64,000 nt of DNA from Candidatus Coprovivens sp. (GTDB lineage: Bacteria; Bacillota_I; Bacilli_A; RF39; UBA660), in assembly GCA_051886175.1 (NCBI GenBank), contig JBJEXV010000066.1, positions 8,996 to 72,995 on the forward strand, read 5' to 3'. The notes under the pieces are model-generated. The model searched no databases. It was not told the origin of the DNA and was given only the letters and a program-made list of their open reading frames with translations. Within the stretch, counting starts at the first letter, position 1. Each line of letters opens with the position of its first letter. A program made the position numbers and the translations under genes. Positions 26,888-53,235 of this stretch are shown here, piece by piece.

Positions 26888-27190
26888 ATGAAATATGATG
26901 ATTTGAGTTTTACAGTAAAAGATAGCAAAGGAAATGATGTGGTTTGTGATATTTTATCAATTGTACCTAATGATGAAAATCCTAAGGAACCATATGTTGT
27001 TTTTACTGATTATATGTTAGATGAAAACGATGAGTTTGTATTACAGTATGGTAAAGTGGTTGAATTTAATGATAACTATATTTTAGATACTGTTACTGAT
27101 CCTTTTATAGTAGAAAAAATAAAAAATGGTTTAACTGATGATATAGTTGCTTATGTAAATGAACAAATTCAAGAAAATATGCATGAATAA
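26888..27190 (+). CDS. DUF1292-like small acidic protein (100 aa)
   Basis: Pattern ...KDSKGNDVVCDILSIV...PYVVFTDY...DENDEFVL is typical of the YrzB/DUF1292 family. Confidence 0.55.
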   Translation: MKYDDLSFTVKDSKGNDVVCDILSIVPNDENPKEPYVVFTDYMLDENDEFVLQYGKVVEFNDNYILDTVTDPFIVEKIKNGLTDDIVAYVNEQIQENMHE

Positions 27191-28337: not shown

Positions 28338-28340
28338 GAG

Positions 28341-28607
28341 ATGAATAATATGAATGAAGTATTTTTAAGGAAAAATGATATTGGTGTTAATATTGAATAT
28401 CATGTTATTGGTTATTATTTAGATGACAATAAAAGATATCGTATTTATACTGATTTTGTTACTGATAAAGATAATATTTTTGGAATAAGAATTATGGTTG
28501 ATTTAGAAAAAGATAGTGAATATGTAAGACTTAATTCTAAAGAAGAAAAAGTAATTATTGAAAAATATAATAGAGAAATAATGGTTTATGCAAAAGGTAA
28601 TAAGTAA
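28341..28607 (+). CDS. DUF1292-like small protein (88 aa), paralogue of 26888..27190
   Basis: YRIYTDFVTDKDNIF aligns with YVVFTDYMLDENDEF. IIEKYNREIMVYA aligns with IVEKIKNGLTDDIVAYV. Confidence 0.45.
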   Translation: MNNMNEVFLRKNDIGVNIEYHVIGYYLDDNKRYRIYTDFVTDKDNIFGIRIMVDLEKDSEYVRLNSKEEKVIIEKYNREIMVYAKGNK

Positions 28608-28609
28608 GG

Positions 28610-32373: not shown

Positions 32374-32441
32374 GTCTTTTAATATTGATATTAAACTCTT
32401 ATTAAGTTATAATTTAATATATAATAAGGGTGTGTATCAAT

Positions 32442-37088: not shown

Positions 37089-37116
37089 AAAACAAGCGAA
37101 ATACGCTTGTTTTTTC
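37089..37116 (+). terminator. intrinsic terminator immediately after essC
   Basis: acaagcg-aaata-cgcttgt followed by T5. Confidence 0.75.
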
Positions 37117-37209: not shown

Positions 37210-37464
37210 ATGAATAATAAAGTATGTGTAGAATTGATTGTTCCTGCTATAGAGGAACGTTACAATGTTTTTATTCCTATAAATAAGAAAACATTAGAGG
37301 TTATATATTTACTTAGTAAAGCAATCAATGAAATGTCTAACGGTTTTTTTGAAATTTCAAACAATGTATCATTAATTAATGGTAGTACGGGTTTGAATTA
37401 TGATGTAGATAAAACATTTTTGGAAAACGGTATATTAAACGGTTCCAAAATTATACTAATGTAA
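37210..37464 (+). CDS. yukD: YukD/EsaB-like ubiquitin-fold T7SS protein
   Basis: 84 aa. KVCVELIVPAIEERYNVFIPINKKTLEVIYLL...LENGILNGSKIILM matches the EsaB/YukD beta-grasp pattern and size. Confidence 0.75.
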   Translation: MNNKVCVELIVPAIEERYNVFIPINKKTLEVIYLLSKAINEMSNGFFEISNNVSLINGSTGLNYDVDKTFLENGILNGSKIILM

Positions 37465-37477
37465 GGAGGGTTGTGTT

Positions 37478-37783
37478 ATGTACAATACTGTTTTTGATTA
37501 TAATTTTGCTGTAGATGAAGAAAAGTTAGGGATTGTTTGTGATACTATGACTGGAAAAGCAAATGAAGTTAGAGAACTTGTAGATTCTATTTATAATATT
37601 ATAAATAATGATTTGTCTAACTATTGGAAAAGTACTTCTTATGATAATTTTAGAGACACTTGTAGTAAATATAGGGTAGGATTAAATGAACTAGCTAATA
37701 TGATTGAGTTGTTTGGTAGTTCAGCTCAAAGTATAAGCGAAGCAGCTGGTGAAATGTTTACTGGCATTAATAGTAAATTTTAA
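37478..37783 (+). CDS. WXG100-like small helical protein (WxG degenerated to W-K-S)
   Basis: 101 aa helix-turn-helix hairpin. The central LSNYWKSTSYDNF corresponds to the WxGxxxxxF turn. Confidence 0.6.
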   Translation: MYNTVFDYNFAVDEEKLGIVCDTMTGKANEVRELVDSIYNIINNDLSNYWKSTSYDNFRDTCSKYRVGLNELANMIELFGSSAQSISEAAGEMFTGINSKF

Positions 37784-37805
37784 AAGGAAATAGAAGGTGA
37801 AGAAT

Positions 37806-39377
37806 ATGAGTACAGGACAAGGAGCTGGCGCTACTAACGGAGATTTTTTTGATTATACTGGTGTAAAAAGTTGTATGGATTCGTTAGATCAAAAATTTTC
37901 TGAGTTTGCTGAACTATTAAGAAGTGTTAATGATTATATGAATGATAATATTCATATTGACCATAATTCTGCTATATTTGGATTGTTAGGAGAAAAATTT
38001 TTGAACGACTGGAATGAAAATGCATCTACTTTTGGTGATTTTTATGAAAACTTCTCTGTATGGAATCAATTAATGGTTAACATAATGAATCAATACGGTG
38101 GGTTTGATGATGCGGCAGTTAAAAATGCAATTGGTCAAAATCAATCTAGTGGGGCTACACTTGCTGGTGTTGCAGAAACAAGAGCTGCAATTTGGGAAAA
38201 TAATCAATTACAAGATTTTAAGGAGGCTAACTTGGTTGCAGGTGCAAACGGAGTTGTTGAAGAAGGCGTTGTTAATAAAGAAATTTTATATGATGGATAT
38301 GAACAATATACATATATAGATGGAACTGTTGTTACTTATGAAAAAGCTGGTGATGGCAGTGTTCAAAGAATGATAGTTGAAAATGTAGATGGAACTATCG
38401 ATACTAAATTAGTATTAGAAGACGGCGGAATGGTTATAGAAAGATATGACGTAAATGGTAAAGCTTATTCTTCTGATATTGTTGGAGCAAACGGAGAAGT
38501 GTTGGCAACTAGAAATTATACTGATGATTATAAAAATGAAACTATTACATTCTATAATGCTGACGGAAGTAAGGATACTATTAAAATATATGATGATTCT
38601 ATTCCTTGGAATACTGGCATGAAAAATGTTACAACAACAGATATGGTTATGCATAGTGATGCTTTTCAACAATTGTTTTATGGTAAAGATGCTAGAAATA
38701 TTTCGAGTGGTGAAATTCTTGATATTACAAAGAGTGCAGTAGTTGAAAATAATCTTGAACGTGATTTCTCAACTGGTGTGAAAACTGCTGATACTTTATC
38801 TCAACATGGAACTTCAACTGATATTTTAGATAACGGATATACTCCTCATTATGCTGATAGATATATTGATAAAAGTGAATTGTATTCTACTAACGAACAA
38901 AAACAAATTGATGCTATTATAGATTATAGAAAAGGGGCACCGGTTGAAGCAGTTCAAGGGCATGATATTGAAGCGGTTAGAGATTCTTATAGAACTAACG
39001 ATATGGCTGATTCTTATGGTCAACAATCTGCTGCGTTCCAAGGTGGAAAAGGAACTACTAGACCTAGTGGTACGGATGGTAATGTTACTAGTGGAAATAC
39101 TGTTTTATATAATTCTGGATATAATACTACAATGCCAAGTAAAACAGATGAAGAAGGGGTAACTAATCCTGCATATAATAACGGAGTTCCTGTTACTGTT
39201 CCAAATGCAATGGATGATGAAAAAGTTGAGGCTTCGACATTGGTATATAATCCTAATACTGGCGAATATACAGTTCAGCCAGTTCCATATAATCCAAGCG
39301 ATGAGGCTCAACTCGTTTTGTTAGGTCAAGATAATAACGATAATGGACAAAGTGGTCCTAAGGTATATAGCTGTTAG
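37806..39377 (+). CDS. putative T7SS substrate: WXG100-like N-terminal domain, short YD-like beta-hairpin repeats, unknown C-terminus
   Basis: SD GAAGGTG before ATG 37806. N-terminus LDQKFSEFAELL...FLNDWNENASTFGDF. Repeats YTYIDGTVVTYE, IERYDVNGKAY, TFYNADGSKDT. No signal peptide or TM. Confidence 0.55.
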   Translation: MSTGQGAGATNGDFFDYTGVKSCMDSLDQKFSEFAELLRSVNDYMNDNIHIDHNSAIFGLLGEKFLNDWNENASTFGDFYENFSVWNQLMVNIMNQYGGFDDAAVKNAIGQNQSSGATLAGVAETRAAIWENNQLQDFKEANLVAGANGVVEEGVVNKEILYDGYEQYTYIDGTVVTYEKAGDGSVQRMIVENVDGTIDTKLVLEDGGMVIERYDVNGKAYSSDIVGANGEVLATRNYTDDYKNETITFYNADGSKDTIKIYDDSIPWNTGMKNVTTTDMVMHSDAFQQLFYGKDARNISSGEILDITKSAVVENNLERDFSTGVKTADTLSQHGTSTDILDNGYTPHYADRYIDKSELYSTNEQKQIDAIIDYRKGAPVEAVQGHDIEAVRDSYRTNDMADSYGQQSAAFQGGKGTTRPSGTDGNVTSGNTVLYNSGYNTTMPSKTDEEGVTNPAYNNGVPVTVPNAMDDEKVEASTLVYNPNTGEYTVQPVPYNPSDEAQLVLLGQDNNDNGQSGPKVYSC

Positions 39378-39394
39378 AAGGGTGGTAATAGGTT

Positions 39395-39628
39395 ATGGGT
39401 AGTTTAAATATTAAAACATTAGGTAATAATATTGAAAAAGTTCAAAATGTGATCAGAGCGTTAGAAACTGTAAAAACTGATTGGCCTGATTTTGTAAAAA
39501 CCGATCAATCCTTTTACGATGAATTTATGAATGATATGGAAAAATTAATAAATGATTTAAAAACATTTAAAACCAATTTAGAAGATTGCGGCGAAAAAGC
39601 TGACCAATATGCTGACTGGGTTGTGTAG
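39395..39628 (+). CDS. small helical protein (77 aa), candidate T7SS partner/chaperone
   Basis: SD AAGGGTGG. Two predicted helices around DWPDF. It lies directly upstream of the 907-aa protein. Confidence 0.5.
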   Translation: MGSLNIKTLGNNIEKVQNVIRALETVKTDWPDFVKTDQSFYDEFMNDMEKLINDLKTFKTNLEDCGEKADQYADWVV

Positions 39629-39640
39629 GAGGTGTAGAAA

Positions 39641-42364
39641 ATGGGATATATAAAAGTTGATAAAAGTAACACAATACCTACAGATTTAAGAAAAGCTGCA
39701 ACAGATTTTAGGGCAATGACTAGTGATTTGGATACGTGGATTAATAATAATTATAATGTGCCCAAAAGTAAATTGTATAAAGAAGAAAAGTATCAAGAAA
39801 AGAGTTGGGTAGAAGATTTAAAAGAATATGTTACAAAAACTTTTACTAGAGTTGTTTATGATCATCGTAATGCTTATGAAATGTACAAACAATGGTTGGA
39901 CAAAGCTCGTAGTTACAATTCTTCAGCTAAAGCAATTGAGCTAAAAGAAGCAGAACGCTTGGCGACAGCTGTTGAAGGAATGATATTGTTAATTGAACAA
40001 TTTGATGATATTAAGAATTTCGACTTAGCTGAAGGCTATTCTGGAAATATGGATATAACAACTTCTGATAATGGTTCTACTGTTACTTTATATTTTAAAG
40101 ATGCAGATGGTAATCTTGTTAGAATATCTGATTTGGTCAATTGTTTTTATTCATATTCTGGAATGTCAATGAGTGGCGTTGTTCAAGGTTATTTATATGC
40201 TGAAGCTAATGGTCTTGAATTTACTGCTGAATATCAACAACAAATTTTAGATGGTGTTAATTCAACAGTTGGAAAGATTAATGAAGCAGAAGGATTTGGA
40301 GTAGTAACTGATGCTGATTTAGAGGGGGTTAGTACTGCGTTAGGTTTTGATTATGCTGCTTTTGTTAGCAATGCTCAAAATACTGGTGGTAATTGGTCTA
40401 ATAACATGGAAGTTGGGTCAACTATTTTAAATCAAAATTATATTATGCAAGAGGCATTTAATTTTGATCCTAATAATCCTGGTGGTGTTCTTGAACAGTC
40501 GGAACAACGAGTTGGTCTACTTAATGATATAACTGGAATGGGTGAAAATCAAATTTCTGATGATCCGACTGGACCAACATTATCAGTACTAGAAGAAACT
40601 GGACCAGGAGGGCCAGAAGAAACTCTTCCGCCTGGAACTGAAGAAGAATCGACTGTTCCAACTAAACCTCTTGATATAGAGTTAATTGATGTTGGTGGAG
40701 CTGATTACTTTAAGAATTTATTGCCGGATACTGAATATGATTATGATGATTTAGCTCGTCAAATGTTCGAAGGAATGTCTGAAGATGAATTATTGGCATT
40801 TAGAGAACAATCTATTAATAGAGCTACAGGATTCATTGAAGCAAACGATGTTGAAAGTATTTCTAATGATTTAACTGGTTATGGATATAGCCAAAGTGAT
40901 ATTGGTAACTTCGTTGATGTAAATAATAAAATTGTTAAAGATCCAGATGCAGTTATTGCTGCTTATGTAGCTGGAGATCAAAATAACTATATGGCTAATA
41001 TGGCTAATAATATGGCTATGAATGATGGTGTTACAGGATTTACTTCATCACATGGTTCTAACGCAAGTTATAGTAACCATCAAAATGGTACTGTTAACGC
41101 AAATATTGCTAACATGCATGATGATGAAGAGGTTGATGAAGCATCTAAAAAATATCAACAAGCTAAGAAAAATTATAAGCAAAAAGCTGATGAAGCAAAT
41201 GAAGCTGCTGAAGATGCTAAAGAAGCTCAAACTGAAGTTAATACTAAAGTCGAAGAGTACGGAAAAGATACTTCTAAGTGGACTGAAGAACAAGCTAAAG
41301 ATTATAACGAAGCTAAAGAAAATTACGAGCAAGCTAAAGAAAATTACGATGAAAAAGTTGAAGAATTTAATAAAGCAGAACAAGAATATAAAGATGCTAA
41401 AAATGATTATGATACTGCAAAAGAAAACTTCGAAAATGAAATTAAAGAAAATGTTAAAGCAAATGATGAATTCTACGAAAATCAAACAGAAGAAGTTAAT
41501 GTTTCTGATGATCAATTAGTAGAAGAGGTTGGCGGAACTGGTGAAAGTAATTCTAATGGAAATACTGGTGAACCAAGTGGTGAAACAACTACTGATACAA
41601 GTGTTGGTGGATCAGAACAAAATGCTGATGCAGTTGACACACAAACTCATGAAGGCACTGTAAATGGTGATGGTACTGTAAGTGCTAGTGATCAAGGATT
41701 AGTAGATTCTATTCTTGGTGGAAATGGTAGAGATGCTGGAAGCACTGATGCTGGAATTGCGATGAACAATGAAGGTGATGTTTCAACAGCTGCTAGTGAA
41801 ACTGGATTAGCTGGTGATGGATTAGCAACTGGTGGAGATACTGGTTCAGTTACTGGTGAAACTTCAACAGAACCAAATAATGGAATTGATGATTTGCGTA
41901 ATGGTGTTGATACTCCTGATGTTGAAACATCTGGTATGGATTCACAAACTGTTTTAGAAACTGCTCCTGCTAGTGAGAATGGAATTATTACTGAAGGTAA
42001 TACAACAGAAATGGCTGATGTATCAGCGATGAGCGAACCACAAGGTATGGAAGCAGTAACTACTGAAGTAACTCAAGAAGCTCCAAGTAGTGAAAATCCA
42101 TTAAATAGTGTTACTGAATCAAGCAATAATGATGCTGCAATAGTTCAACAAATGACTCAAGAAGAGGCAGCAAGAAATGAAAAACAAAAAACTGAAAGTG
42201 CAGAAAGTTCTGATGTTGGAACTCAATCTACACAAACAGTTCAAACAGCAACTGCTCAAACTCAATTTAGAACAGATGCTGGTGTAAAAGTAGAATCTAG
42301 CAGTAATGAAAATGTTGTTTCTGTTGGAAACGATGCATTATTGAACTCGATAATAACTGAATAA
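39641..42364 (+). CDS. large T7SS-associated protein (907 aa): helical N-terminus, conserved central module shared with 47628..50147, K/E coiled coil, disordered S/T/E/G tail
   Basis: SD AGGAGGTG. No signal peptide or TM. Central module DYDDLARQMF...GYGYSQSDI...AGDQNNYMA...KWTEEQAKDYNE...DYDTAKENFENEIKENV. Confidence 0.6.
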   Translation: MGYIKVDKSNTIPTDLRKAATDFRAMTSDLDTWINNNYNVPKSKLYKEEKYQEKSWVEDLKEYVTKTFTRVVYDHRNAYEMYKQWLDKARSYNSSAKAIELKEAERLATAVEGMILLIEQFDDIKNFDLAEGYSGNMDITTSDNGSTVTLYFKDADGNLVRISDLVNCFYSYSGMSMSGVVQGYLYAEANGLEFTAEYQQQILDGVNSTVGKINEAEGFGVVTDADLEGVSTALGFDYAAFVSNAQNTGGNWSNNMEVGSTILNQNYIMQEAFNFDPNNPGGVLEQSEQRVGLLNDITGMGENQISDDPTGPTLSVLEETGPGGPEETLPPGTEEESTVPTKPLDIELIDVGGADYFKNLLPDTEYDYDDLARQMFEGMSEDELLAFREQSINRATGFIEANDVESISNDLTGYGYSQSDIGNFVDVNNKIVKDPDAVIAAYVAGDQNNYMANMANNMAMNDGVTGFTSSHGSNASYSNHQNGTVNANIANMHDDEEVDEASKKYQQAKKNYKQKADEANEAAEDAKEAQTEVNTKVEEYGKDTSKWTEEQAKDYNEAKENYEQAKENYDEKVEEFNKAEQEYKDAKNDYDTAKENFENEIKENVKANDEFYENQTEEVNVSDDQLVEEVGGTGESNSNGNTGEPSGETTTDTSVGGSEQNADAVDTQTHEGTVNGDGTVSASDQGLVDSILGGNGRDAGSTDAGIAMNNEGDVSTAASETGLAGDGLATGGDTGSVTGETSTEPNNGIDDLRNGVDTPDVETSGMDSQTVLETAPASENGIITEGNTTEMADVSAMSEPQGMEAVTTEVTQEAPSSENPLNSVTESSNNDAAIVQQMTQEEAARNEKQKTESAESSDVGTQSTQTVQTATAQTQFRTDAGVKVESSSNENVVSVGNDALLNSIITE

Positions 42365-42385
42365 AAAGGATAGGAGAAAGTTGGA

Positions 42386-42823
42386 ATGAAAGAAAAGTAT
42401 TTACCAATAGGAACTGTAGTTTTATTAAAAGGTGGAAAGAAAAGAGCAATGATTACTGGATTCTGTTCAGTAGCTCAAGAAAACCAAGATAAAATATATG
42501 ATTATAGTGGATGCGTATATCCAGAAGGATATTTGAGTTCTAATCAAGTATGTTTATTTGATCATGACCAAATAGAAAAAGTATATTTTGAAGGTTTCGT
42601 TGATGATGAAGAAATTCAATTCAAAGAAAAATTAAATACTATAGTTGCTAATTTAGAAAATCAAATGTCTGCAGATGCTGCAGCAACAACTCCAGCAACA
42701 GAAGAAACTACTTCTGAAGCTCCTGCTGAAATCCCTACTGTTGATACACCAATTGGTGGTTTAGGGAATTTAGAAGGTGAAGCAATTACTGAAGATTCTG
42801 ATATCAAACCATTCGGAGAATAA
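42386..42823 (+). CDS. DUF4176-like protein (T7SS-associated) with an acidic Ala/Thr/Glu tail
   Basis: KYLPIGTVVLLKGGKKRAMITGF...YDYSGCVYPEGY...LFDHDQIEKVYFEGFVDDEE matches the DUF4176 consensus pattern. Confidence 0.7.
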   Translation: MKEKYLPIGTVVLLKGGKKRAMITGFCSVAQENQDKIYDYSGCVYPEGYLSSNQVCLFDHDQIEKVYFEGFVDDEEIQFKEKLNTIVANLENQMSADAAATTPATEETTSEAPAEIPTVDTPIGGLGNLEGEAITEDSDIKPFGE

Positions 42824-42849
42824 AAAAGCCATTATATGGCTTTTTTTTA
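42824..42849 (+). terminator. intrinsic terminator
   Basis: agccat-tat-atggct followed by T8. Confidence 0.75.
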
Positions 42850-42858
42850 TTATCTTTA

Positions 42859-42887
42859 TTGACTATAATGTGAAATTTTTGTAAAAT
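42859..42887 (+). promoter_or_regulatory. sigma-A promoter for the esxA unit
   Basis: TTGACT (42859-64), 17-nt spacer, TAAAAT (42882-87). Leaves a 5' UTR of about 115 nt. Confidence 0.6.
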
Positions 42888-43002
42888 GATATTATAAGGA
42901 TATGGTGATAGTCAAGAGGGTTTTGGAACTAACCTACATTATATTCTTTATATACTAGAAGTGTATTCTTATAATTGATGAAAATTGGATGGAGGTGCAA
43001 TT

Positions 43003-43308
43003 ATGGGTGCATTAAGAATGGAAAGTGGAGAATTACGTAATCTAGGAAATGAAATTAAGAGTAATGCTAGTAGCTTTAATTCATTAATTTCTCAATTCCA
43101 ATCAGAATATGAATCTCTAACAGCTAATGGAACTTGGGAAGGACCAGACTCAGTTACATTTGCTCAAGCTGCTGCTAACTTTAAGGCTGACTTAGATAAA
43201 GCTGCTCAATTAGTAGAAGAAGTTGGTCAAAACTTAGTAACAACTGCTGATAACTACGATTCAGTACATGAAAGCGTAAACTCAAGCATCAATAGTATGT
43301 TAGGATAA
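43003..43308 (+). CDS. esxA: WXG100 protein, EsxA-like
   Basis: SD GGAGGTG before ATG 43003. 101 aa. Canonical central turn GTWEGPDSVTFAQAAANF (W-x-G). Confidence 0.85.
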   Translation: MGALRMESGELRNLGNEIKSNASSFNSLISQFQSEYESLTANGTWEGPDSVTFAQAAANFKADLDKAAQLVEEVGQNLVTTADNYDSVHESVNSSINSMLG

Positions 43309-43368
43309 TATCTAACAAAACTATAACTAACCAAAAAACAAAAAAATATTATAAGTGAGGTGACACAG

Positions 43369-43671
43369 ATGAATGTTTTTGAATATACAACTTTCTGTGA
43401 AGTTTATGAAAATTTAAAGAAAACTATCGGTACTATGGAGGATGCTGATCCAAGTACAGTTGGTGGAGTTATCAAATCAAGTGATACTCAAATTAATAAA
43501 GGATTAGACTACGCTGCAGATTCTTCTTGGGCTGCTTCTAAATTAGCTGCTTGGAATGAAATGCTTCCTGGTTTAAAAACAAATTTCGAAAACTTAATCG
43601 TTTTATTAAACAACGCAAAAAATGCTGCTGATAAATATAACGAATTCGAAAAAACAAATTCAGGTATGTAA
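43369..43671 (+). CDS. WXG100-like partner protein (EsxB-like position)
   Basis: SD GTGAGGTG before ATG 43369 (track GTG 43360 is also possible). 100 aa, helical, SSWAASKLAAWNE turn. Followed by two hairpins (43675-43745). Confidence 0.55.
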   Translation: MNVFEYTTFCEVYENLKKTIGTMEDADPSTVGGVIKSSDTQINKGLDYAADSSWAASKLAAWNEMLPGLKTNFENLIVLLNNAKNAADKYNEFEKTNSGM

Positions 43672-43765
43672 TCCTATGTACTACTGTTGTAGTACATTGT
43701 AAGTTGCTAAACAGTTAGTTTGGCAATTTACAATGTACTATATTTTTTAGAAAGATGGTGTTTAT

Positions 43766-45046
43766 ATGGCTTGGGATTTTACGGTTGATAGTGATATCCA
43801 GTTAGATATGGCGAAATATTTGAAGGAGAAAGCAGATGAACTAGATACTCAATTTGCAAATTTATATACACAAATTGGACCTAGTAATCTTGGAACTCAT
43901 TGGGTTGGTAGTGATTATGATGCATTCAATGTGGGATGTGAAGGTTATAAACAAGCTTTAGATGATATGACTGATTCTGTCCGTATGTATGCCAGCCATT
44001 TTGAAAAAGTTGCCGAAGGAACTGATTTATTATCTTCTCTATGTATTTCAATAGTACAAAATATGACAACTAGAGGAGATGCATTACCAGGATCTGGTGG
44101 AGCTGTAAGTACTACTGGTGGAACAGGAACTACTGGAACAGGAGGTACTACTACAGGTACTGGTGGTAATGGCCAAGGAACCGGCGGTAATGGAACTACT
44201 GCTGTGACTGGAGGAACTGGTCAAGGAACTGGTGGAAATGGTACAGGTACTACTGGTCAAGGTGGAACAGGATTTAGAGGAGGTTCTACTGTTCAAGGTG
44301 GTACTGGCGGTAACGGAACTACTGGACAAGGAAATGGCGGTGTAGTTGGAACTGGAGGACAATCGTTGATTGGACAAGGAACTGGTGGAAATGGTACGGG
44401 TACTACTGGTCAAGGTGGAACAGGATTTAGAGGAGGTTCTACTGGTCAAGGTGGCACCGGAGGTAACGGAACTACTGCTGTGACTGGAGGAACTGGTCAA
44501 GGAACTGGTGGAAATGGAAATCAGCAACAAAGTCAACAAAATCAACAACAAAAACCTGGATATTGGCAACAACAAGGTCAAAGATATGTTGATGATTGGA
44601 ATGACTTTACTGGCGATGTTTCATATACATGGGGTAAAGCTAATGGCTTGATTTCTGGAACATATGCGTTAGCAGAAACAGGTGTTGAAACTAGTTTATT
44701 TGTTGCTGACACTGCTATTAATACTGTTCAAACTGGAACTGATATGATTCAAAGTGGTGCTAACTGGTTATTTGATGCTTTTAATAGTCGTTCAGTTGGA
44801 AATGGCGATTACTGGAGTAATATAGGAAAAGATTATGCTGAAAACTTCGATTATTCTACTTGTGATAATTTTGCTGAAGGTTTAGGTGTGACTTTATGTG
44901 CTGTACCTCGTACAGTAGTAGATATTGGTCAAACAGTTATTAATGCTGGTGCTGATGCTATTGAATTTGTTGGAGACGGAGTGTCTTGGTTAGGAGATAA
45001 GGTTAATGATGGTGTAACATGGCTTGGTAACTTTATCTTTGGATAG
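43766..45046 (+). CDS. putative T7SS effector: WXG100-like N-domain, Gly/Thr/Gln repeat linker, about 150-aa C-terminal domain of unknown function
   Basis: N-domain with THWVGSDYDAF (W-x-G). Repeats GGTGQGTGGNGTGTTGQGGTGFRGGST. Q-rich stretch. C-terminal domain with repeated W-L-(G/F) and small-residue-rich amphipathic segments. Confidence 0.6.
   Translation: MAWDFTVDSDIQLDMAKYLKEKADELDTQFANLYTQIGPSNLGTHWVGSDYDAFNVGCEGYKQALDDMTDSVRMYASHFEKVAEGTDLLSSLCISIVQNMTTRGDALPGSGGAVSTTGGTGTTGTGGTTTGTGGNGQGTGGNGTTAVTGGTGQGTGGNGTGTTGQGGTGFRGGSTVQGGTGGNGTTGQGNGGVVGTGGQSLIGQGTGGNGTGTTGQGGTGFRGGSTGQGGTGGNGTTAVTGGTGQGTGGNGNQQQSQQNQQQKPGYWQQQGQRYVDDWNDFTGDVSYTWGKANGLISGTYALAETGVETSLFVADTAINTVQTGTDMIQSGANWLFDAFNSRSVGNGDYWSNIGKDYAENFDYSTCDNFAEGLGVTLCAVPRTVVDIGQTVINAGADAIEFVGDGVSWLGDKVNDGVTWLGNFIFG
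44186..44520 (+). repeat. interleaved long direct repeats inside the Gly/Thr-rich coding tract
   Basis: A 50-bp exact repeat occurs at 44192-44241 and 44468-44517. An about 80-bp repeat occurs at 44222-44300 and 44375-44454, with 2 mismatches. Confidence 0.85.
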
Positions 45047-45069
45047 AATGAATAGAAAGGGATATAGAT

Positions 45070-45435
45070 ATGGATAATAATGAAAGTAAATTGCTTGGTA
45101 TGGAAAGATGTGTAATTTTACAAGCAATAGCTGAAAATTACTTAATTAGAACTACTGGGAAACATTTTGATGAGGCTTATCCTGAAGTTCAAGAAGAATA
45201 TGGTGTTCTTCTTGAACAACACATTCGTTTATTAAAAGCTTATTTGAATGAAGAATATGCAGAAAGAAATTTAAATTTAAACGAATGTATTAGAAGATCA
45301 GGTGAAACTGCTATTCTTGATGATAAATTAACTGACTATGAAGTTAAAGCACTTATTAGAAATGCTGATTTAGTTTTATCTACTTATGTAATGGTAGAAG
45401 AAAGAAAGAAAAAACTTTGGAAAAAAGAAGCTTAA
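45070..45435 (+). CDS. hypothetical cytoplasmic helical protein (121 aa); immunity or chaperone candidate
   Basis: SD AAAGGGA. No TM or signal peptide. Lies between two large putative substrates. Confidence 0.45.
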   Translation: MDNNESKLLGMERCVILQAIAENYLIRTTGKHFDEAYPEVQEEYGVLLEQHIRLLKAYLNEEYAERNLNLNECIRRSGETAILDDKLTDYEVKALIRNADLVLSTYVMVEERKKKLWKKEA

Positions 45436-45483
45436 TTAATAAATTTGATTTTTATATAAAAAAATTAAATGGGAGGTATAAAT

Positions 45484-47172
45484 ATGTCTGAAAGAAAATT
45501 TGATTATAATAACGTCGGAACTGTCTATAATCAAATGAAAAATATCAACGATAATATTAAGAATTTGTTAACTGATACTGATAATGAAGTTCATAATAAA
45601 GTTGATGTTTGTGAAGAAGCTATTTATGGAGATTTAGGTAATCAGTTGTTATTATCTTGGGATAATATTTCATCTAATTTTCCAAACTTTGTGGACAATT
45701 TTGAAAATTGGTCTGCATTAGTTGCTAAAGCTTCTGGTGATTATTCTCAATTCGAGGCGGATGTTGCTGCATTTAAAAATGCTAATCCACTTGGTGTTAC
45801 AAGTGCTGGAGCAACACAAGGAGCAGTTGCTACTTCATCTTATAATAATAGTTTAACTGCTGAAGAAATTGCTGAATTAGATGTAGCTACAGTGTTCTAT
45901 GAACCTACTGGTGCTACTTATATCGATACTGGAATGGTTGAATATGCTAAACAACATAAGACAATGAATATTGTAGGAGATGTACTGAATGTAGTTTCTA
46001 TTGCACTTGCTGCTGTACAAGTTGGATCTGCTGTTAAAGCTGCAAGTTCGGTTGTTCAAGCAGGTACTCAAACTACTGCATTAGCTGTTGTTGGTAATAG
46101 TGCTGATGATGCTGCATTAGCTGTTGTTGGTAATAGTGCTGATGATGCTGGTAGATTAATGTTAACTGCTGGTGCTAATAGTGCTGACGATGTTGGTTTA
46201 GCTGTTGTTTCGAGTACAGCTGATGATGCTGCTGCTGCAGGTGCTAAAACAACTGCACAAGCTGCTGCTGCTAATTTAGGCGACGATGGTCTTAATGCTG
46301 CTGGAAAAGCTGCTGCTGATCTTGGTGATGATGGTATAAAAGCTGCTGGTCAGGCTACTGCTTCTAATTTAAGCGATGATGGTTTAAAAGTTCTTGGAGA
46401 AAAAATTGGAAAAGATGGTCGTAAGTTCATTAGAGTTAAAAATGCGGATGGTGGTACAGATTTGATAGAAGCTGCTACTGGTAGAAGTACAGTTCGTGAT
46501 ATTACATATTCTGCAGATGAATTAAAGAGTATTGGAATCAATGTTGGGGATGATGTTACAGCTAATGTTGGAACTCAAACGACTAAGGCAGCTAGTGCTG
46601 CTCCGAATGGTACTACAACTGGTCCTAAAACAACAAATACAGGTGGAACAACACCAAAAGGATCAACTGGTAGTGGTGCTGCTCAAACTGCTGCTGGTAA
46701 TACAGGTGGTACAGCAACTAATACTGCTAATGGAACTAAGACTACATGGAGTCAAAAATGGAATAATTCTAAAGCTGGTCAATGGACAAATACTCAAAAA
46801 GATAAATTCTATGGTACTAAGTTTGGTCAAAAGGTTCAAGATTCTGCCAATGCTGCAACTAATAGATTCAATAATATAAAAAATAAAGTTTCTGGTTGGG
46901 GTTCTTCTGCAAGTACTGGAGCTCAAAACTTTGGAACTAATGTTAAAACAGGTGCTTCAAATATGTATAATAGTGCTAAGACAGGTGTTCAAAATGGATA
47001 TAATTATGTTAAAGATTTAAATGCTGCTAATCCAACTTATGCTGGAAAATGGGCACCAGGTGCTGTAGGTGTTAATATAGTTAACATAGGTTATGATGAT
47101 AACCAACAATATGATCCTAATGTATATAGTAATCAACAAAATCAATCTGGCTCAAATAATCAAACTCCATAA
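45484..47172 (+). CDS. putative T7SS substrate: WXG100-like N-domain, hydrophobic segment, (A/G)DD(A/G) repeats, G/T/N-rich tail
   Basis: SD GGGAGG before ATG 45484. LLLSWDNISSNFPNF turn. IVGDVLNVVSIALAAVQVGSAV. Repeats ALAVVGNSADDA x2, then NSADDVG, STADDAA, LGDDGL, LGDDGI, LSDDGL. Confidence 0.55.
   Translation: MSERKFDYNNVGTVYNQMKNINDNIKNLLTDTDNEVHNKVDVCEEAIYGDLGNQLLLSWDNISSNFPNFVDNFENWSALVAKASGDYSQFEADVAAFKNANPLGVTSAGATQGAVATSSYNNSLTAEEIAELDVATVFYEPTGATYIDTGMVEYAKQHKTMNIVGDVLNVVSIALAAVQVGSAVKAASSVVQAGTQTTALAVVGNSADDAALAVVGNSADDAGRLMLTAGANSADDVGLAVVSSTADDAAAAGAKTTAQAAAANLGDDGLNAAGKAAADLGDDGIKAAGQATASNLSDDGLKVLGEKIGKDGRKFIRVKNADGGTDLIEAATGRSTVRDITYSADELKSIGINVGDDVTANVGTQTTKAASAAPNGTTTGPKTTNTGGTTPKGSTGSGAAQTAAGNTGGTATNTANGTKTTWSQKWNNSKAGQWTNTQKDKFYGTKFGQKVQDSANAATNRFNNIKNKVSGWGSSASTGAQNFGTNVKTGASNMYNSAKTGVQNGYNYVKDLNAANPTYAGKWAPGAVGVNIVNIGYDDNQQYDPNVYSNQQNQSGSNNQTP
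46078..46149 (+). repeat. perfect 36-bp tandem duplication (2 copies), followed by degenerate copies to about 46390
   Basis: gcattagctgttgttggtaatagtgctgatgatgct occurs at 46078-46113 and again at 46114-46149. Confidence 0.9.
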
Positions 47173-47227
47173 CTGATACTTTGATTAAATGTTGATAAAT
47201 ATAAATTTAAAATAAGGAGGAAAAATT

Positions 47228-47599
47228 ATGGCTACTGAAGAAATTGATTATTCGAAATATACCTGTACGAAAAAGAACATGCAATATACCATTATTAGTG
47301 ATGAAATCAAGAAGGATTTTGACTTCTTGCTTTCATCAAATACAATGGGCAATAAGTTAGATGAAATGTTAAATTATCTGAATACTGCTGCTGGTATATC
47401 TAATGCGTTCTATTTCGAAAATGGTGGTTCTGTACAAGATATTAACCACGTGTATGAAGAAATTAAAAACGATGTATCTCAATTAAAATCTGATCTTGAT
47501 ACTTTACATGCTGCATTTATGACTGATATTGATAACGTTAATGCAGAACTTGAAGTTAACTTTGGTCATTGGGTTGGATATAAGGTTAATGGAAAATAA
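47228..47599 (+). CDS. small helical protein (123 aa), candidate T7SS partner/chaperone
   Basis: SD AAGGAGG. Helical, ends ...NFGHWVGYKVNGK. Lies directly upstream of the 839-aa protein. Confidence 0.5.
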   Translation: MATEEIDYSKYTCTKKNMQYTIISDEIKKDFDFLLSSNTMGNKLDEMLNYLNTAAGISNAFYFENGGSVQDINHVYEEIKNDVSQLKSDLDTLHAAFMTDIDNVNAELEVNFGHWVGYKVNGK

Positions 47600-47627
47600 T
47601 ATAATGCAAAGGTTTGAGGTGATTTAG

Positions 47628-50147
47628 ATGTCAAAAGCAAAAATTGATAGTGTTGAATATGATGAATTGCGTAATCAGGTTCAATATGCCGCAGATTGTT
47701 TAGCTGAAGTTGATCAACTTTGGGGCGATAGATTTGAAGATTTGTATTATGCATTTATTACTAGTGGATATTTAGAAGATTTATATGAAGATGCAAAGAG
47801 TAATTATTATACATTGAAAAAATCTGTTAGTGCAATATCTAATGTTGCTACAGGAGCTTCATTAGGATGCGTAATAGGTTCTGTTATTCCAGGTGTTGGT
47901 AACATCGCTGGAGCAATTATTGGTGCAGTAATTGGTTTAGTATTTGGTATTTACAATTTCTGTACTACTGATCCTACATGGATTACTACTTCTAAACAAG
48001 TATTTGAACAATTATTAACAGATTGTGTTAATGGTAATAATGATTGTTATATTGGTATTACTAATATTGGGACTAAGTTATTAAATGTTCAAATATCATT
48101 AGAAGAGATTAGAACTTTGGTTAATGAATTTAACTATGCGTATGCTTCATTAGAAGATTCAATGAATGAATTCGGATTAAAAGGTCAAATGACAGATGAT
48201 GGTGTATTATTATCTGTTGATACACAAATTACTGTTGATGGTCAAACATATACAACAAGTGTTAGTGAAGCATTAAATGCATTCTATACATATCAAAATA
48301 CAGTTATGGCTGCTAGAATTGAAGCACAAGTATTATCTGAGAAATATGGTATTGAAATAGATTATGATGCATTAGTTAAAAATGCAAATGGATTTATTGT
48401 TAATACATTAAATAGTGGATTATACTCACACGAGTTTATAGATGCATTATTACCAAATTATACTCCAGATCAAGTTGGGGTTACTGATGCAGCTGCATCT
48501 GGATTGGGAATTTCTACAAGTGACTTCCAATCAGCACTAGCAAAAGCTTCAAGTATTGTTGGTGTTGGTGCTGGATTAGTTGGTGCTAGTTTTATAGGTC
48601 AAGTTGCTAATCCAAGTGGAGGAGATACTTCACAAAAATGTCCTAACTGTGGTGGAGACCCTACTAAGTGTGGATGTGGAAGTAAAAATCCTGGAGGAAC
48701 AAATGGTGGCACAACAGGAGGTACTACTGGTGGCACAACAGGTGGTACTACAGGTGGTACTACCGGAGGAATTATTGGTGGAACAACTGGTGGTACTACT
48801 GGCGGAACAAATGGTGGCACAACAGGTGGTACTACAGGAAAAGAAAATGAAAAAGAAACTGAAAAAAACGATGTTAAAATTGAAGAAGTTTCTAAAACAA
48901 AAATTCCTGAAGAAGTTAAATCTGAAATTACTAAAGATTATGATGACTTAGCTCGTAGAGAATATGAAGCTTTAGGAGAAGAAAAAATTGTTGAACGTAG
49001 AGCAAAAATTATGGATGATATTGATGCTGCTTATGAATCAGGTAACTTCAAAGATATTAAGAAAAAATTAGAAGAATATGGATATTCTGAACCAGAAATT
49101 AATGCGTTAATTAACGATAGAGATAAACTAGCAGTTGCATTAATTACTGGAGATCAAAAAGAATTTATGGCTGAAAAAGCTATGGAATTAGCAAAAGCTG
49201 ATGGAATTGAAAACTTTGAATCTACATGGGCTGAACCTGCTGAATATCGTGATTTAACTGATGGTACAGCTAATACTATAATTGCTAACATGAGTCAAGA
49301 TGAAGGTGTAAGTAAAGCTTATGAAGAATTAACTACTGCGACAACTGCTTATGAAGAAAAAGTAGAAGATGCTGTGGCTGCTGTTGAAGCTGTAGCTGCT
49401 GCTAAGACTACAATGACTGCTCTTGAAGATAAGTTTACTAAAGAATTTGGTACTTCTGATACAACTAAGTGGAGTAAAGAAGCTGTTGAAGAATATAACG
49501 AATCAGTTAAAGAGTATAACGAAAAAGTTAAAGATGCAGATGATAAATTAAAAGCTAAAGATAAAGCTAAAGAAGAATATGATGAAGCATTAGAAGACTA
49601 TGAAGATGCTAAAGAAGATTTCGAAAAACGTATTAAAGATAATATAGTAAATGATGATAGTGATACAGGAGATACTCCTGAAATGAATGGTCCTGATACT
49701 TCATTAGATGATACTCAAGGTAATGGAAACAACGGAAATAATAACAATAATAATGGAAATAATAATGGTAACAATAATGGAAACAATGGTGTTACTGGTA
49801 AACCAAATTATATTCCTGTTGATCAAGACTTCCCTGGTATCGCATTAGGTACTCCTGAAGATAATTCATTATATGCATCTGAAAATCTTGGATCTAATGG
49901 TGTATATACTGAAACAGTTGAAGTAACAGGCCAAGATGGTACTACTCAAACATTTACTAGAACTAGTGAAGGTGCTGACTTTATGAGTGGGACTCCTACA
50001 GTTACAACTGGTACAAATGGAACTGTAAGTAGTGTTGTATCTGGTGGTACTGACGCTAATGGAAATGCTCAAAAAATAGTTTCATTATCAAATGATGATA
50101 TTATGGCAGCATTATTACTACAAGAAGAAGAAGCAAAAATGAAGTAA
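47628..50147 (+). CDS. large T7SS-associated membrane protein (839 aa), paralogous in its central module to 39641..42364
   Basis: SD GAGGTG. N-terminal helical region with QLWGDRF. Gly-zipper hydrophobic stretch GASLGCVIGSVIPGVGNIAGAIIGAVIGLVFGIYNF. (GGTT)n tract. Module DYDDLARREY...EYGYSEPEI...TGDQKEFMA...KWSKEAVEEYNE...DYEDAKEDFEKRIKDNI. (N/G)n tract. Confidence 0.6.
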   Translation: MSKAKIDSVEYDELRNQVQYAADCLAEVDQLWGDRFEDLYYAFITSGYLEDLYEDAKSNYYTLKKSVSAISNVATGASLGCVIGSVIPGVGNIAGAIIGAVIGLVFGIYNFCTTDPTWITTSKQVFEQLLTDCVNGNNDCYIGITNIGTKLLNVQISLEEIRTLVNEFNYAYASLEDSMNEFGLKGQMTDDGVLLSVDTQITVDGQTYTTSVSEALNAFYTYQNTVMAARIEAQVLSEKYGIEIDYDALVKNANGFIVNTLNSGLYSHEFIDALLPNYTPDQVGVTDAAASGLGISTSDFQSALAKASSIVGVGAGLVGASFIGQVANPSGGDTSQKCPNCGGDPTKCGCGSKNPGGTNGGTTGGTTGGTTGGTTGGTTGGIIGGTTGGTTGGTNGGTTGGTTGKENEKETEKNDVKIEEVSKTKIPEEVKSEITKDYDDLARREYEALGEEKIVERRAKIMDDIDAAYESGNFKDIKKKLEEYGYSEPEINALINDRDKLAVALITGDQKEFMAEKAMELAKADGIENFESTWAEPAEYRDLTDGTANTIIANMSQDEGVSKAYEELTTATTAYEEKVEDAVAAVEAVAAAKTTMTALEDKFTKEFGTSDTTKWSKEAVEEYNESVKEYNEKVKDADDKLKAKDKAKEEYDEALEDYEDAKEDFEKRIKDNIVNDDSDTGDTPEMNGPDTSLDDTQGNGNNGNNNNNNGNNNGNNNGNNGVTGKPNYIPVDQDFPGIALGTPEDNSLYASENLGSNGVYTETVEVTGQDGTTQTFTRTSEGADFMSGTPTVTTGTNGTVSSVVSGGTDANGNAQKIVSLSNDDIMAALLLQEEEAKMK
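48694..48840 (+). repeat. 12-bp-period coding microsatellite encoding (GGTT)n
   Basis: About 12 units of ggtggtactaca-like sequence. Protein GGTNGGTTGGTTGGTTGGTTGGTTGGIIGGTTGGTTGGTNGGTTGGTTG. Confidence 0.9.
49719..49790 (+). repeat. AAT/GGA-rich low-complexity tract encoding (N/G)n
   Basis: Protein GNGNNGNNNNNNGNNNGNNNGNNG. Confidence 0.85.
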
Positions 50148-50152
50148 TTAAG

Positions 50153-50179
50153 TGATTATGCGCTTTATGCGCATAATCA
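50153..50179 (+). terminator. stem-loop after the 839-aa gene (weak T-tract)
   Basis: tgattatgcgc-tttat-gcgcataatca, then only TTT. Confidence 0.45.
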
Positions 50180-50205
50180 TTTAAAATAAATAGGTTGGTG
50201 ATGAT

Positions 50206-50637
50206 ATGATAAATAAGGATTTACCTATTGGGACAGTTGTTCTATTAAGAGGTGGATTAAAAAAAGTTATGATTACTGGATACTCTTCTGTTTCTAGAGA
50301 GGATTCAGAAAAAGTGTATGACTACAATGGTTGTATATTCCCTGAAGGTTTAATGGAAAATGTGTTTTGCTTATTTGATGCTTCTCAAATAGAAGAAGTT
50401 TTCTATGAAGGTTTAAGAAACGACGATTACGAAAATTATACAGAAAAGAGAAAATCAATGCTTGCTTCTGGAAGTTCTTATGGTAGAACTGGATATACTG
50501 AATCTAATAATAGAACTGAAAAACCTAAAGGACGTAGAGCTCGTACTGCTCCAAAACATCCAAGAAGTGCATCTGAAATGCATGCTAAATACGATGTTAA
50601 GAAGATTTCAGGCGATGGCGTAGATTACGGAGATTAG
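50206..50637 (+). CDS. DUF4176-like protein with a basic, disordered C-terminal tail
   Basis: DLPIGTVVLLRGGLKKVMITGY...YDYNGCIFPEG...LFDASQIEEVFYEG, then ...EKPKGRRARTAPKHPRSASEMHAKY. Confidence 0.7.
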   Translation: MINKDLPIGTVVLLRGGLKKVMITGYSSVSREDSEKVYDYNGCIFPEGLMENVFCLFDASQIEEVFYEGLRNDDYENYTEKRKSMLASGSSYGRTGYTESNNRTEKPKGRRARTAPKHPRSASEMHAKYDVKKISGDGVDYGD

Positions 50638-50646
50638 GAGGATATT

Positions 50647-50922
50647 ATGGAAAAGAGATTATTACCTATAGGTAGTGTGGTATTACTAAATGGTGGTACT
50701 AAAAAAGCTATGATTACTGGTTATTGTCCAGTTACTGAAGAAAATCTTGATAAGATGTATGATTATAGAGGTTGTCCTTTCCCTGAAGGAATTATGATTT
50801 CTGAAGGAAATGCATTATTCAATCATGATGAAATTAGTGAAGTTATTCACACTGGTTATGAAAATGATGAAGCTATTGATTTTATCGATAGATTAGAAAT
50901 TGCAATCGAAAAGAACAAATAA
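50647..50922 (+). CDS. DUF4176-like protein (minimal, 91 aa)
   Basis: RLLPIGSVVLLNGGTKKAMITGY...YDYRGCPFPEG...LFNHDEISEVIHTGYENDE. Confidence 0.7.
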   Translation: MEKRLLPIGSVVLLNGGTKKAMITGYCPVTEENLDKMYDYRGCPFPEGIMISEGNALFNHDEISEVIHTGYENDEAIDFIDRLEIAIEKNK

Positions 50923-50946: not shown

Positions 50947-51074
50947 TGAAATCTTTTTAATAAAATATTATAATTAGTTTGACTTTATTACTTATTACAA
51001 TTGATTATTAATGTTTAAACCACTGTGGGAGAAGTCCGTAGTGGGATTTTATGATGTAGAAAAGAGGGTGGATT

Positions 51075-53096: not shown

Positions 53097-53141
53097 TTAG
53101 AGGTTTTATTTATTTAATTGATAATTTATGTATGAATTAAT

Positions 53142-53167
53142 AAACTAGGCTAAAATAGCCTAGTTTT
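53142..53167 (+). terminator. intrinsic terminator after helD
   Basis: aaactaggcta-aaa-tagcctagttt followed by a T-run. Confidence 0.75.
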
Positions 53168-53235
53168 TATGTTTGTTTTGTATGTTTAAAAATTGACAGT
53201 ATTCTTTAAATATAATAAACTATTGTGGCTAGGGG

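Follow-up and report, generated by a model that had tools for sequence, protein, structure and literature searches.

A duplicated gene unit of candidate type VII secretion substrates and accessory proteins beside essC in Candidatus Coprovivens

The biology of T7SSb-type type VII secretion systems (T7SSs) is known from a few cultured genera and is framed by the LXG/Lap paradigm. Here we describe a gene array next to essC in Candidatus Coprovivens sp., a genus placed in Bacilli incertae sedis. The array lies in a stretch of 64,000 nucleotides (nt) of contig JBJEXV010000066.1 (the window; all positions refer to it, and genes and their products are named by their first position). The window is low in GC (25–36%), nearly all of its genes are on the + strand, and its T7SS locus is flanked by thrS on one side and by a UvrD-like helicase gene on the other; at the upstream end the order is thrS, a terminator-like hairpin, and then the EssC gene. 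An earlier note, made by a model from the letters alone, had read positions 37478 to 50147 as five iterations of one module, in which a small helical protein gene precedes a large gene with a WXG-like N-terminus. As described below, the array is instead made of two copies of a unit of five genes, in the order C (WXG100-type, ~100 amino acids (aa)), A, s, B and DUF4176, and its products are probably T7SS substrates and accessory proteins. The features of the locus are as follows.

32430 to 37088, + strand: EssC, the T7SSb FtsK/SpoIIIE-type secretion ATPase, 1552 aa (TIGR03928, Pfam).
37210 to 37464, + strand: probable EsaB/YukD-type ubiquitin-like protein, 84 aa (conserved position, weak Pfam hints).
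37478 to 37783, + strand: C1, free-standing WXG100-type protein, 101 aa (TIGR03930, 5e-5; family-C profile).
37806 to 39377, + strand: A1, 523 aa, helical N-domain at aa ~10–133 followed by a lineage-variable C-terminus (N-terminus like that of 45484).
39395 to 39628, + strand: s1, small helical protein, 77 aa (its family lies directly upstream of B1-type genes).
39641 to 42364, + strand: B1, 907 aa, divergent helical N-terminus, domain 1 at ~130–366, helical mid-domain at 361–633, low-complexity tail.
42386 to 42823, + strand: DUF4176 (Ltc-type) chaperone, 145 aa, closing unit 1 (PF13780, 2.5e-28, 98 bits).
43003 to 43308, + strand: EsxA-like WXG100 protein, 101 aa (Pfam WXG100, 5e-10, 40 bits against a cut-off of 27.3).
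43369 to 43671, + strand: free-standing helical protein of the family-A type, 100 aa, paired with 43003 (phmmer).
43692 to 43738, + strand: terminator- or attenuator-like hairpin, 20-bp stem and T-run, after the EsxA-like pair and within the 94-nt gap before 43766.
43766 to 45046, + strand: C-extended protein, 426 aa, WXG100 part at aa 1–100, Gly/Thr-rich repeat linker, C-terminal domain of ~157 aa (family-C profile).
45070 to 45435, + strand: soluble protein, 121 aa, candidate immunity protein or domain-specific chaperone (co-occurrence with the 43766 C-terminal domain).
45484 to 47172, + strand: A2, 562 aa, N-domain at aa 1–121, GDYSQFE motif, hydrophobic stretch at ~160–185, Ala/Gly/Thr-rich tail with tandem repeats.
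47228 to 47599, + strand: s2, small protein, 123 aa (directly upstream of B2-type genes).
47628 to 50147, + strand: B2, 839 aa (homology; AlphaFold2 (AF2) model).
50206 to 50922, + strand: two DUF4176 (Ltc-type) chaperones, 143 and 91 aa, closing unit 2 (PF13780, 5.3e-20 and 4.5e-25).

For comparison, we fetched 22 related loci via EssC (69–75% identity) and further loci via protein look-ups, which gave a syntenic comparison set of 24 loci whose open reading frames (ORFs) were compared with the window proteins; all related loci derive from uncultured Bacilli, 'Tenericutes' or Coprovivens assemblies. The ten ORFs named in the earlier note were all found on the + strand where it had placed them, and they are real genes, since they include ORFs of 426–907 aa in DNA of ~33% GC, have homologues in public data and keep their synteny in the 24 loci. 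Protein 37806 is 100% identical to a hypothetical protein in a Candidatus Coprovivens sp. metagenome-assembled genome, and the NCBI annotation of that protein (523 aa) agrees with the 37806 start. The longest ORFs begin slightly earlier in four cases (37797 GTG, 42985 TTG, 43360 GTG and 45469 ATG); the better Shine-Dalgarno sequences, described before as good and found as gaaggtg, ggaggtg, gtgaggtg and gggaggt 6–9 nt before the start codon, belong to the ATG starts 37806, 43003, 43369 and 45484. The tight spacing between small and large genes holds at gaps of 12–60 nt (22 nt before 37806, 12 nt before 39641, 60 nt before 43369, 48 nt before 45484 and 28 nt before 47628) and breaks down before 43766, where the 94-nt gap carries the hairpin. 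The motifs FLNDWNENASTF, THWVGSDYDAF, LLSWDNISSNF and QLWGDRF were all recovered from the translations; for 39641 the earlier note had given none. As it had stated, the large proteins lack signal peptides, with no N-terminal hydrophobic stretch in any of the five; internal hydrophobic stretches occur in 45484 (aa ~160–185) and 47628 (aa 79–114). Its description of the small proteins as all-helical finds indirect support in WXG100 homology for 37478 and 43003 and, for 43369, in its relation to the A domain that was modelled as helical on 37806; for the rest it depends on crude helix propensity. We also noticed in-frame tandem DNA repeats inside large genes (46076–46150, 48691–48839 and 44094–44168), namely a perfect 36-nt repeat in two copies in 45484 (ALAVVGNSADDA), GGTT-coding repeats of 12/24/36 nt in 47628 and Gly/Thr-coding repeats in 43766, and these regions likely vary in length.

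The T7SS setting of the region is firm because EssC scored 993 bits (E = 2e-298) against the NCBIfam equivalog TIGR03928 T7_EssCb_Firm, whose cut-off is 778, and because the locus holds three DUF4176 proteins and the WXG100 protein 43003; EssC also matched Pfam FtsK_SpoIIIE at 5.5e-44. The view that this is T7SS substrate territory was therefore upheld, with EssC directly upstream, WXG100 proteins in the array and DUF4176/Ltc genes after two of the large genes. Directly after EssC, the 84-aa protein is kept at 63–87% identity in 23 related loci. Its orthologues gave weak, sub-threshold Pfam matches to YukD (0.15, in two of 20 orthologues) and to other ubiquitin-like families (0.015–0.035, UBL_ZFAND1 at 0.035), and the protein itself had no sequence match in the PDB. 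The first 240 aa of EssC (32430–33149), which precede the part aligned to the model, showed no similarity to solved structures, EssC FHA domains included. FHA domains contact EssB in T7SSb, and this N-terminus without FHA similarity is relevant alongside the unrecognised EssB discussed below.

All-against-all BLASTP within the locus revealed paralogy between the two halves of the array: the N-termini of 37806 and 45484 are 30% identical (5e-8), a 265-aa middle domain of 39641 and 47628 is 33% identical (4e-32), the whole of 37478 matches the N-terminus of 43766 (8.8e-7), and the whole proteins 39395 and 47228 match weakly (0.055). Family searches across the 24 loci confirmed the A, B, C and s relations. 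Unit 1 thus spans 37478–42823 and unit 2 spans 43766–50922, with the EsxA-like pair 43003 and 43369 in between, and terminator-like hairpins stand at the unit borders: after EssC (37087–37115), after 42386 (42822–42846), after 43369, and after 50647 (51020–51044), where unit 2 ends. The related loci run from EssC through the YukD-like gene, C (~100 aa), A (137–816 aa), s1 (77–88 aa), B (742–990 aa) and DUF4176, and then through WXG100, a ~100-aa gene, a C-type gene (110–688 aa), A (263–567 aa), s2 (123–143 aa) and B (721–839 aa) to two DUF4176 genes and the UvrD-like helicase. The order C-A-s-B-DUF4176 was kept in every related locus long enough to show an order, and a third copy of the unit lies upstream of EssC in some relatives. 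Because of the A, B and C paralogies and the same gene order in relatives, we read the locus as an ancient tandem duplication of the C-A-s-B-DUF4176 unit, as sequence comparison indicates. It follows neither the picture of five iterations of one module, since the large proteins fall into three unrelated families (A, 37806 and 45484; B, 39641 and 47628; C-extended, 43766), nor that of a shuffled cassette array: it belongs to the conserved chromosomal core of the lineage, and variation is confined to the C-terminal parts of A and C.

The same synteny bears on the idea that the large proteins stand outside type VII secretion altogether, as cytoplasmic coiled-coil or surface proteins that happen to be encoded beside essC. 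Families A and B have no recognisable secretion domain in Pfam, NCBIfam or the PDB, as this idea would have it, but in each of the 24 loci their genes keep strict synteny with EssC and are intermingled with those for WXG100 and DUF4176 proteins, the transcription-unit structure links them to the T7SS genes, and the proteins have neither a signal peptide nor an LPXTG anchor. We consider the idea very improbable.

Family C belongs to WXG100, as judged from profile comparison: searched against the PDB, the family-C profile (34 domains) matched B. anthracis EsxB (1.6e-7), G. thermodenitrificans EsxA (2e-4) and S. aureus EsxA (3e-4), W46 of its WxG motif is invariant and G48 is present in at least 90% of members. 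As single sequences, 37478 (16.7 bits) and the N-terminus of 43766 (17.4 bits) stay below the Pfam WXG100 cut-off of 27.3, which 43003 passes. Protein 37478 is thus a free-standing member and 43766 a member with a 326-aa extension, in which THWVG is a true WxG motif. The protein 43003, which is preceded by promoter-like sites at 42859 and 42947, is the most EsxA-like of the locus (PDB matches to EsxA 3zbh at 4.4e-7 and S. aureus EsxA at 3.7e-3) and is probably the core WXG100 protein of the system; it also scored 30.2 bits against Pfam PPE (cut-off 26). Plain phmmer searches with its neighbour 43369 found N-domains of large A-type proteins from relatives (1.5e-5, 2.9e-5 and 1.5e-4), and 43369 is therefore a free-standing A-type protein. 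Since the 43003-type/43369-type pair is kept in relatives, as are the units, the locus shows three ordered C-then-A pairs, 37478 with 37806, 43003 with 43369, and 43766 (followed by 45070) with 45484, in which the extension can sit on either partner.

Family A is a previously uncatalogued N-domain of ~125 aa, a helical hairpin joined to a fast-evolving C-terminus. Similarity between 37806 and its homologues is confined to the first ~135 aa, and an alignment of 31 sequences gave the motif SA[IV][FY]G-x-L-G...W..N.STF..F..NF..W. AF2 modelled aa 1–140 of 37806 as a helical hairpin (H17–48/H60–111) with a third helix, the hairpin having a predicted local distance difference test (pLDDT) score of 74–85. 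In this model the W lies inside helix 2 and the invariant G of SA[IV][FY]G-x-L-G at the turn, so that of the W-type turn proposed earlier the motifs remain and the placement of the W does not. At the end of helix 2, G[DN]YxxFE was present in all 12 A2 orthologues (aa ~88–96 of 45484, within 45484–45846), the corresponding region of 37806 (aa 97–101) reads QYGGFDD and is of Yxxx[DE] type, and about half of 85 wider family-A members have Yxxx[DE] in the same stretch; by analogy, we infer that this YxxxE motif may function as a T7SS signal.

A library-wide profile search (1.84 billion cluster representatives) returned 321 family-A members at E ≤ 1e-3, and among the best 150 of these the A domain is at the N-terminus in nearly all, with total lengths of 79–1210 aa; a word-indexed profile search with the A alignment returned 13 short fragments only. 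When we scanned 90 family-A members with Pfam, none matched LXG (E ≤ 1e-3) or WXG100, and sporadic domains were seen (RHS repeats, glucosaminidase, Ser/Thr phosphatase, Gly-zipper and mucin-binding). The five members whose contigs were inspected were all in the gene order described here: P0001 (the cluster of 37806); P0183 and P0189, which show the full order of EssC, an 85-aa gene, small genes, WXG100, A, s, B and DUF4176; and P0163 and P0127, whose short contigs give a partial view of it. The C-terminal part of 37806 is rich in G, T, D and N with YD-like repeats. These are degenerate at aa ~165–260 (38300–38650; YTYIDGTVVTY, ERYDVNGKAY, TFYNADGSKDT), where Pfam RHS_repeat gave no match at E ≤ 0.1; RHS_repeat was found in two of the 90 relatives. 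Near aa 160–190, a hydrophobic stretch (45961–46038 in 45484) is kept in 8 of 12 A2 orthologues and is lacking in the unit-1 paralogue.

In family B, 47628 is laid out as a predicted N-terminal helix-WG-helix segment (W32, G33), a Gly-rich hydrophobic stretch (79–114), domain 1 (110–330), a GGTT-repeat linker, a mid-domain and an Asn-rich tail. Domain 1 of 39641 and that of 47628 are linked through relatives, and in the mid-domain (aa 431–700 of 47628) D437, Y438, D439 and L441 are invariant. An AF2 model of full-length 47628 was confident only at aa 412–675 (pLDDT 84–94), which are helical with a long hairpin (H559–607/H617–674), and Foldseek searches of this model against the PDB returned generic long helical hairpins at E > 0.1. 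Proteins of the 47628 type are 36–57% identical over their full length; B is conserved end to end and therefore not polymorphic. The Gly-rich hydrophobic stretch of B2 (35–40 aa; 47862–47969) was kept in four of four orthologues and is lacking in the unit-1 paralogue; this Gly-zipper-like stretch and the hydrophobic stretch of A2 could be a membrane anchor or the membrane-inserting element of a toxin. Many family-B C-termini end in an amphipathic motif, [ST]x[DE]x[LI][LM]xx[LI], within the last 10–25 residues (50060–50147 and 42300–42364), such as SNDDIMAALLL in 47628, where it coincides with the terminal helix of the AF2 model (H822–838), GNDALLNSII in 39641, and SDAELLAAL, SDEDLLNLI and EQSLINQLF in relatives. 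This motif could be a recognition signal.

Each B gene stands between an s gene and DUF4176 genes. The s1 family (77–88 aa) precedes the B-position gene in 12 related loci and was drawn in by iterated searches seeded with WXG-type proteins; its profile gave no significant match against the PDB (EsxB 0.036, LapA4 0.13). The s2 family (123–143 aa) was found in nine related loci and had no Pfam or PDB match; in all three related loci that extend to B2 it lies between A2 and B2, directly before B2. Against PF13780 the three DUF4176 proteins scored 98 (42386), 72 (50206) and 88 bits (50647) with a cut-off of 25, and 42386 matched the solved DUF4176 protein 9dcs (1.1e-8). DUF4176 proteins are the Ltc chaperones, which stabilise T7SSb-exported LXG toxins via a disordered middle region (PMC12478183). 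From conserved adjacency, s1 with B1, s2 with B2 and C1 with A1 are plausible physical pairs.

The small gene 45070 does not fit a pairing with the large gene that follows it. The orthologues of 43766 are 110–688 aa long with differing C-termini, and among the related loci its C-terminal ~157 aa were found only in L019, L020 and L024; homologues of 45070 occur in these same three loci and directly downstream of that domain, so that the two co-occur in four of four loci, which is a small sample. A metagenome scan for 45070 homologues added one further, near-identical locus, and 45070 had no family or PDB match. This strict co-occurrence assigns 45070 to the C-terminal domain of 43766 and not to 45484, and makes it a candidate immunity-like or chaperone-like partner of that domain, as far as gene co-occurrence can tell. 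The pair 43003/43369, previously placed with 43766, is an EsxA-like C/A pair of its own, parted from 43766 by the strong hairpin, and not obviously a dedicated partner set for it. Both of these earlier pairings, 45070 with 45484 and 43003/43369 with 43766, are probably wrong.

These results bear on the explanation that the array consists of five equivalent cassettes, each an LXG-type polymorphic toxin with its own upstream targeting (Lap-type) or immunity protein. That every large gene has a tightly spaced small gene before it, that the T7SS context is firm and that families A and C have variable C-termini would all suit it. However, no Pfam LXG match was found at E ≤ 0.1 in the five large proteins or at E ≤ 1e-3 among the 90 family-A relatives, the family-A profile did not match the solved TelA LXG chain at E ≤ 10, and the large proteins are three unrelated families in a duplicated unit, of which the B proteins are conserved throughout. 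We compared the small proteins with models of Lap1 (DUF3130/TIGR04197), Lap2 (DUF3958), Lap3 (DUF5344) and Lap4 (DUF5082): 37478, 39395, 43369, 45070 and 47228 gave no match at E ≤ 0.1, and only 43003 touched Lap1, at 26.2 bits against the TIGR04197 cut-off of 26, a score better explained by its EsxA-like nature. Together with the placement of 45070 and of the 43003/43369 pair, and with Pfam and NCBIfam scans of all locus proteins that gave no LXG, Lap2–4, toxin or immunity family, this makes five equivalent cassettes quite unlikely. The same scans agree with the observation in the earlier note that no C-terminal domain matches a toxin family.

EsaA, EssA and EssB were not recognised among the 20 ORFs of 26888–50922 and ten larger ORFs elsewhere in the window (~25 ORFs of at least 90 aa were left unscanned); in the flanks of the related loci, whose ORFs were compared with window proteins and not with Pfam, ORF sizes match the window's housekeeping genes. 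As the search covered the window only, the missing genes may lie elsewhere in the genome. The window itself holds, at 26888–30055, a small acidic protein and a membrane protein twice in succession (100 and 392 aa; 88 and 481 aa), the two membrane proteins being weakly alike (E = 0.13). We rejected these membrane proteins (27159 and 28610) as stand-ins for EssB or EsaA, having found no homologue in the retrieved flanks of related loci.

One way to account for the unrecognised EsaA, EssA and EssB is that some of the conserved large proteins, chiefly B2 (47628) and A2 (45484), are lineage-specific membrane components that functionally replace them and not cargo. The full-length conservation of B2 would fit such a role, as would the hydrophobic stretches, found in 4/4 B2 and 8/12 A2 orthologues and in neither unit-1 paralogue, and the long helical hairpin of the B mid-domain, which an envelope-spanning stalk might have; unrelated accessory membrane proteins also serve other T7SS subtypes (PMC11217815). 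On the other hand, DUF4176 chaperones, whose clients, where known, are exported toxins (PMC12478183), follow both B paralogues, the A and B tails are low-complexity and fast-evolving, and the A domain is common to clearly polymorphic proteins. Moreover, the search for EssB, EsaA and EssA covered the window and not the whole genome, and the B2 stretch is Gly-zipper-like, resembling membrane-depolarising T7SS toxins. TspA and TelE are toxins of this kind that have a Gly-zipper-like stretch. Taken together, we regard replacement of the membrane components by B2 and A2 as unlikely.

The explanation that we favour is that the region is the substrate and accessory half of a Coprovivens T7SSb-type locus, built as a duplicated unit with PE/PPE-like C/A pairs, and we hold this to be probably right; the reading of the region as T7SS substrates with small helical partners had thus been right in kind. 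C and A proteins would form Esx- or PE/PPE-like helical heterodimers, in which C gives the WxG turn and A the YxxxD/E motif at the end of helix 2, and C-terminal cargo could be carried by either partner, the variable C-termini of A and C-extended proteins being the cargo. The s proteins would each attach to their B protein at its helical N-terminus, in the way that Lap factors bind LXG domains, and the DUF4176 chaperones would hold B proteins soluble in the cytoplasm, via the middle region or the hydrophobic stretch, until hand-over. C/A heterodimers and s/B complexes would then present composite helical signals, and EssC would export the complexes. Within unit 2, the C-terminus of 43766 and 45070 may be a variable cassette of effector domain and partner. 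The fusion of the N-terminal families A and C to variable C-termini is a substrate-like architecture.

Several results weigh against this explanation. No toxin domain is recognisable in the five window proteins, and the C-terminal parts are largely low-complexity, so that the word 'effector' is an architectural inference. The family-A profile had no significant match among PDB sequences. Foldseek of the A-domain model gave nothing significant (E > 1), the hairpin being too simple; its top 40 included, at non-significant scores, EsxA (3zbh_H, template modelling (TM) score 0.62 on the target) and further chains of the ESAT-6, PE and Lap kinds. A link between family A and WXG100 appeared only in lenient iterated searches of a small local database, and hhalign of family A against family C was not significant (E = 0.042, probability 1.3%); we have therefore not filed A under WXG100. 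The N-terminus of B was modelled at low confidence, the conserved hydrophobic segments in A2 and B2 are also compatible with membrane components, and with EsaA, EssA and EssB unrecognised a working T7SSb machine around EssC is unproven.

Small WXG100-related genes beside candidate substrates are an accepted pattern in T7SS loci (PMC11217815, PMC10801868), and the closest parallel to the s-B-DUF4176 part is the LXG/Lap/Ltc module. As in TelA-LapA3-LapA4-LtcA of S. intermedius (PMC10801868, PMC12478183), small helical genes lie directly upstream of a large protein without a signal peptide; such modules likewise include a DUF4176 gene, the locus is beside essC and the large protein has a helical N-terminus, and in Ltc clients a separate middle region lies between the N-terminal targeting and C-terminal domains. 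Here, however, no LXG domain is detectable, one small protein and not two Laps precedes B, the small proteins match none of DUF3958, DUF5344 and DUF5082, DUF4176 comes after the large gene, and B is not followed by immunity genes, is conserved and ends in a low-complexity tail instead of a toxin domain. The several small WXG100-like partners and chaperone of one large substrate also recall S. aureus EsaD with EsxB/EsxC/EsxD and EsaE (Yang et al. 2023, via PMC11217815), from which our locus differs in having neither a nuclease or other toxin domain nor EsaG-type immunity genes, and to which it shows no similarity in sequence.

The C/A pairs resemble the Esx and PE-PPE pairs of the mycobacterial T7SSa. 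In both, unlike helical-hairpin proteins are encoded in bicistronic pairs (here C then A, three times per locus), WxG is found in one partner while helix 2 of the other ends in a YxxxD/E-type motif, and a long, variable, low-complexity C-terminal extension is possible on either partner; 43003 even passes the PPE threshold. PE_PGRS and PPE_MPTR proteins carry long low-complexity C-terminal extensions. The differences are that the host here is a member of Bacillota with a T7SSb-type EssC and no EspG-type chaperone, that the C/A heterodimer is putative and that family A is not significantly similar to PPE, PE or WXG100.

The subtypes T7SSc to T7SSj, described from RefSeq genomes, have accessory sets that are smaller or differently composed (Garrett, Higginson & Palmer 2024, PMC11217815). 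They share with our locus a core cut down to the ATPase (TsxC), WXG100 (TsxA) and a small ubiquitin-like protein (TsxB; a probable one here), and candidate substrates next to small WXG100-related genes; unlike them, our locus has an EssC that scores as the T7SSb equivalog, and the locus proteins that we scanned included no recognisable kinase, phosphatase, FHA, vWA or Ig-like products of the kinds by which those subtypes are defined. Met in our searches only as metagenome-derived assemblies, the lineage probably fell outside that RefSeq-based survey. It is conceivable, if rather unlikely, that the lineage has a further T7SS subtype, with a T7SSb-type EssC and ubiquitin-like protein but without EsaA, EssA and EssB, with PE/PPE-like secretion of C/A heterodimers built on family A as a new targeting domain, and with conserved, membrane-embedded A2/B2 proteins that, kept by DUF4176 chaperones, would make up the envelope portion of the machine or a secreted surface structure and not act as toxins.

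The locus is built partly from protein families uncatalogued in any library we searched: in a widespread gut lineage, essC is followed by conserved candidate substrates that Pfam, NCBIfam and PDB searches did not recognise. On the favoured explanation, family A, with its 321 cluster representatives, is a new candidate targeting domain, and B would be a new class among DUF4176 clients, conserved and not polymorphic. A locus without recognisable EsaA, EssA and EssB bears on the question of the minimal T7SSb machine, and the corrected pairings provide concrete pairs for co-folding and secretion assays.

Some further observations concern the neighbourhood of the array. Most of the related loci L005–L025 have two extra free-standing genes (~100 and ~105 aa, one C-type and one A-type) right after the YukD-like gene (e.g., L005:14995–15625), which are absent from the window and from its closest relative, L003. 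Reverse-strand ORFs within the large genes (e.g., 41048–41515 and 44084–44581) were rejected as by-products of low-complexity coding sequence. The window also encodes, at 13797–16082, a true FtsK DNA translocase, which has alpha and gamma domains and is distinct from its paralogue EssC. At 51075–55065 lie the UvrD-like helicase gene and a gene for a protein of ~607 aa, which in relatives, too, directly follow the T7SS locus; for the ~607-aa protein, a weak Metallophos match was seen in the orthologue from L002, and only coiled-coil-type Pfam matches in the window copy. Further downstream, the relatives carry genes for SpoIIGA (Peptidase_U4) and a sigma factor, which hints at a spore-forming lineage.

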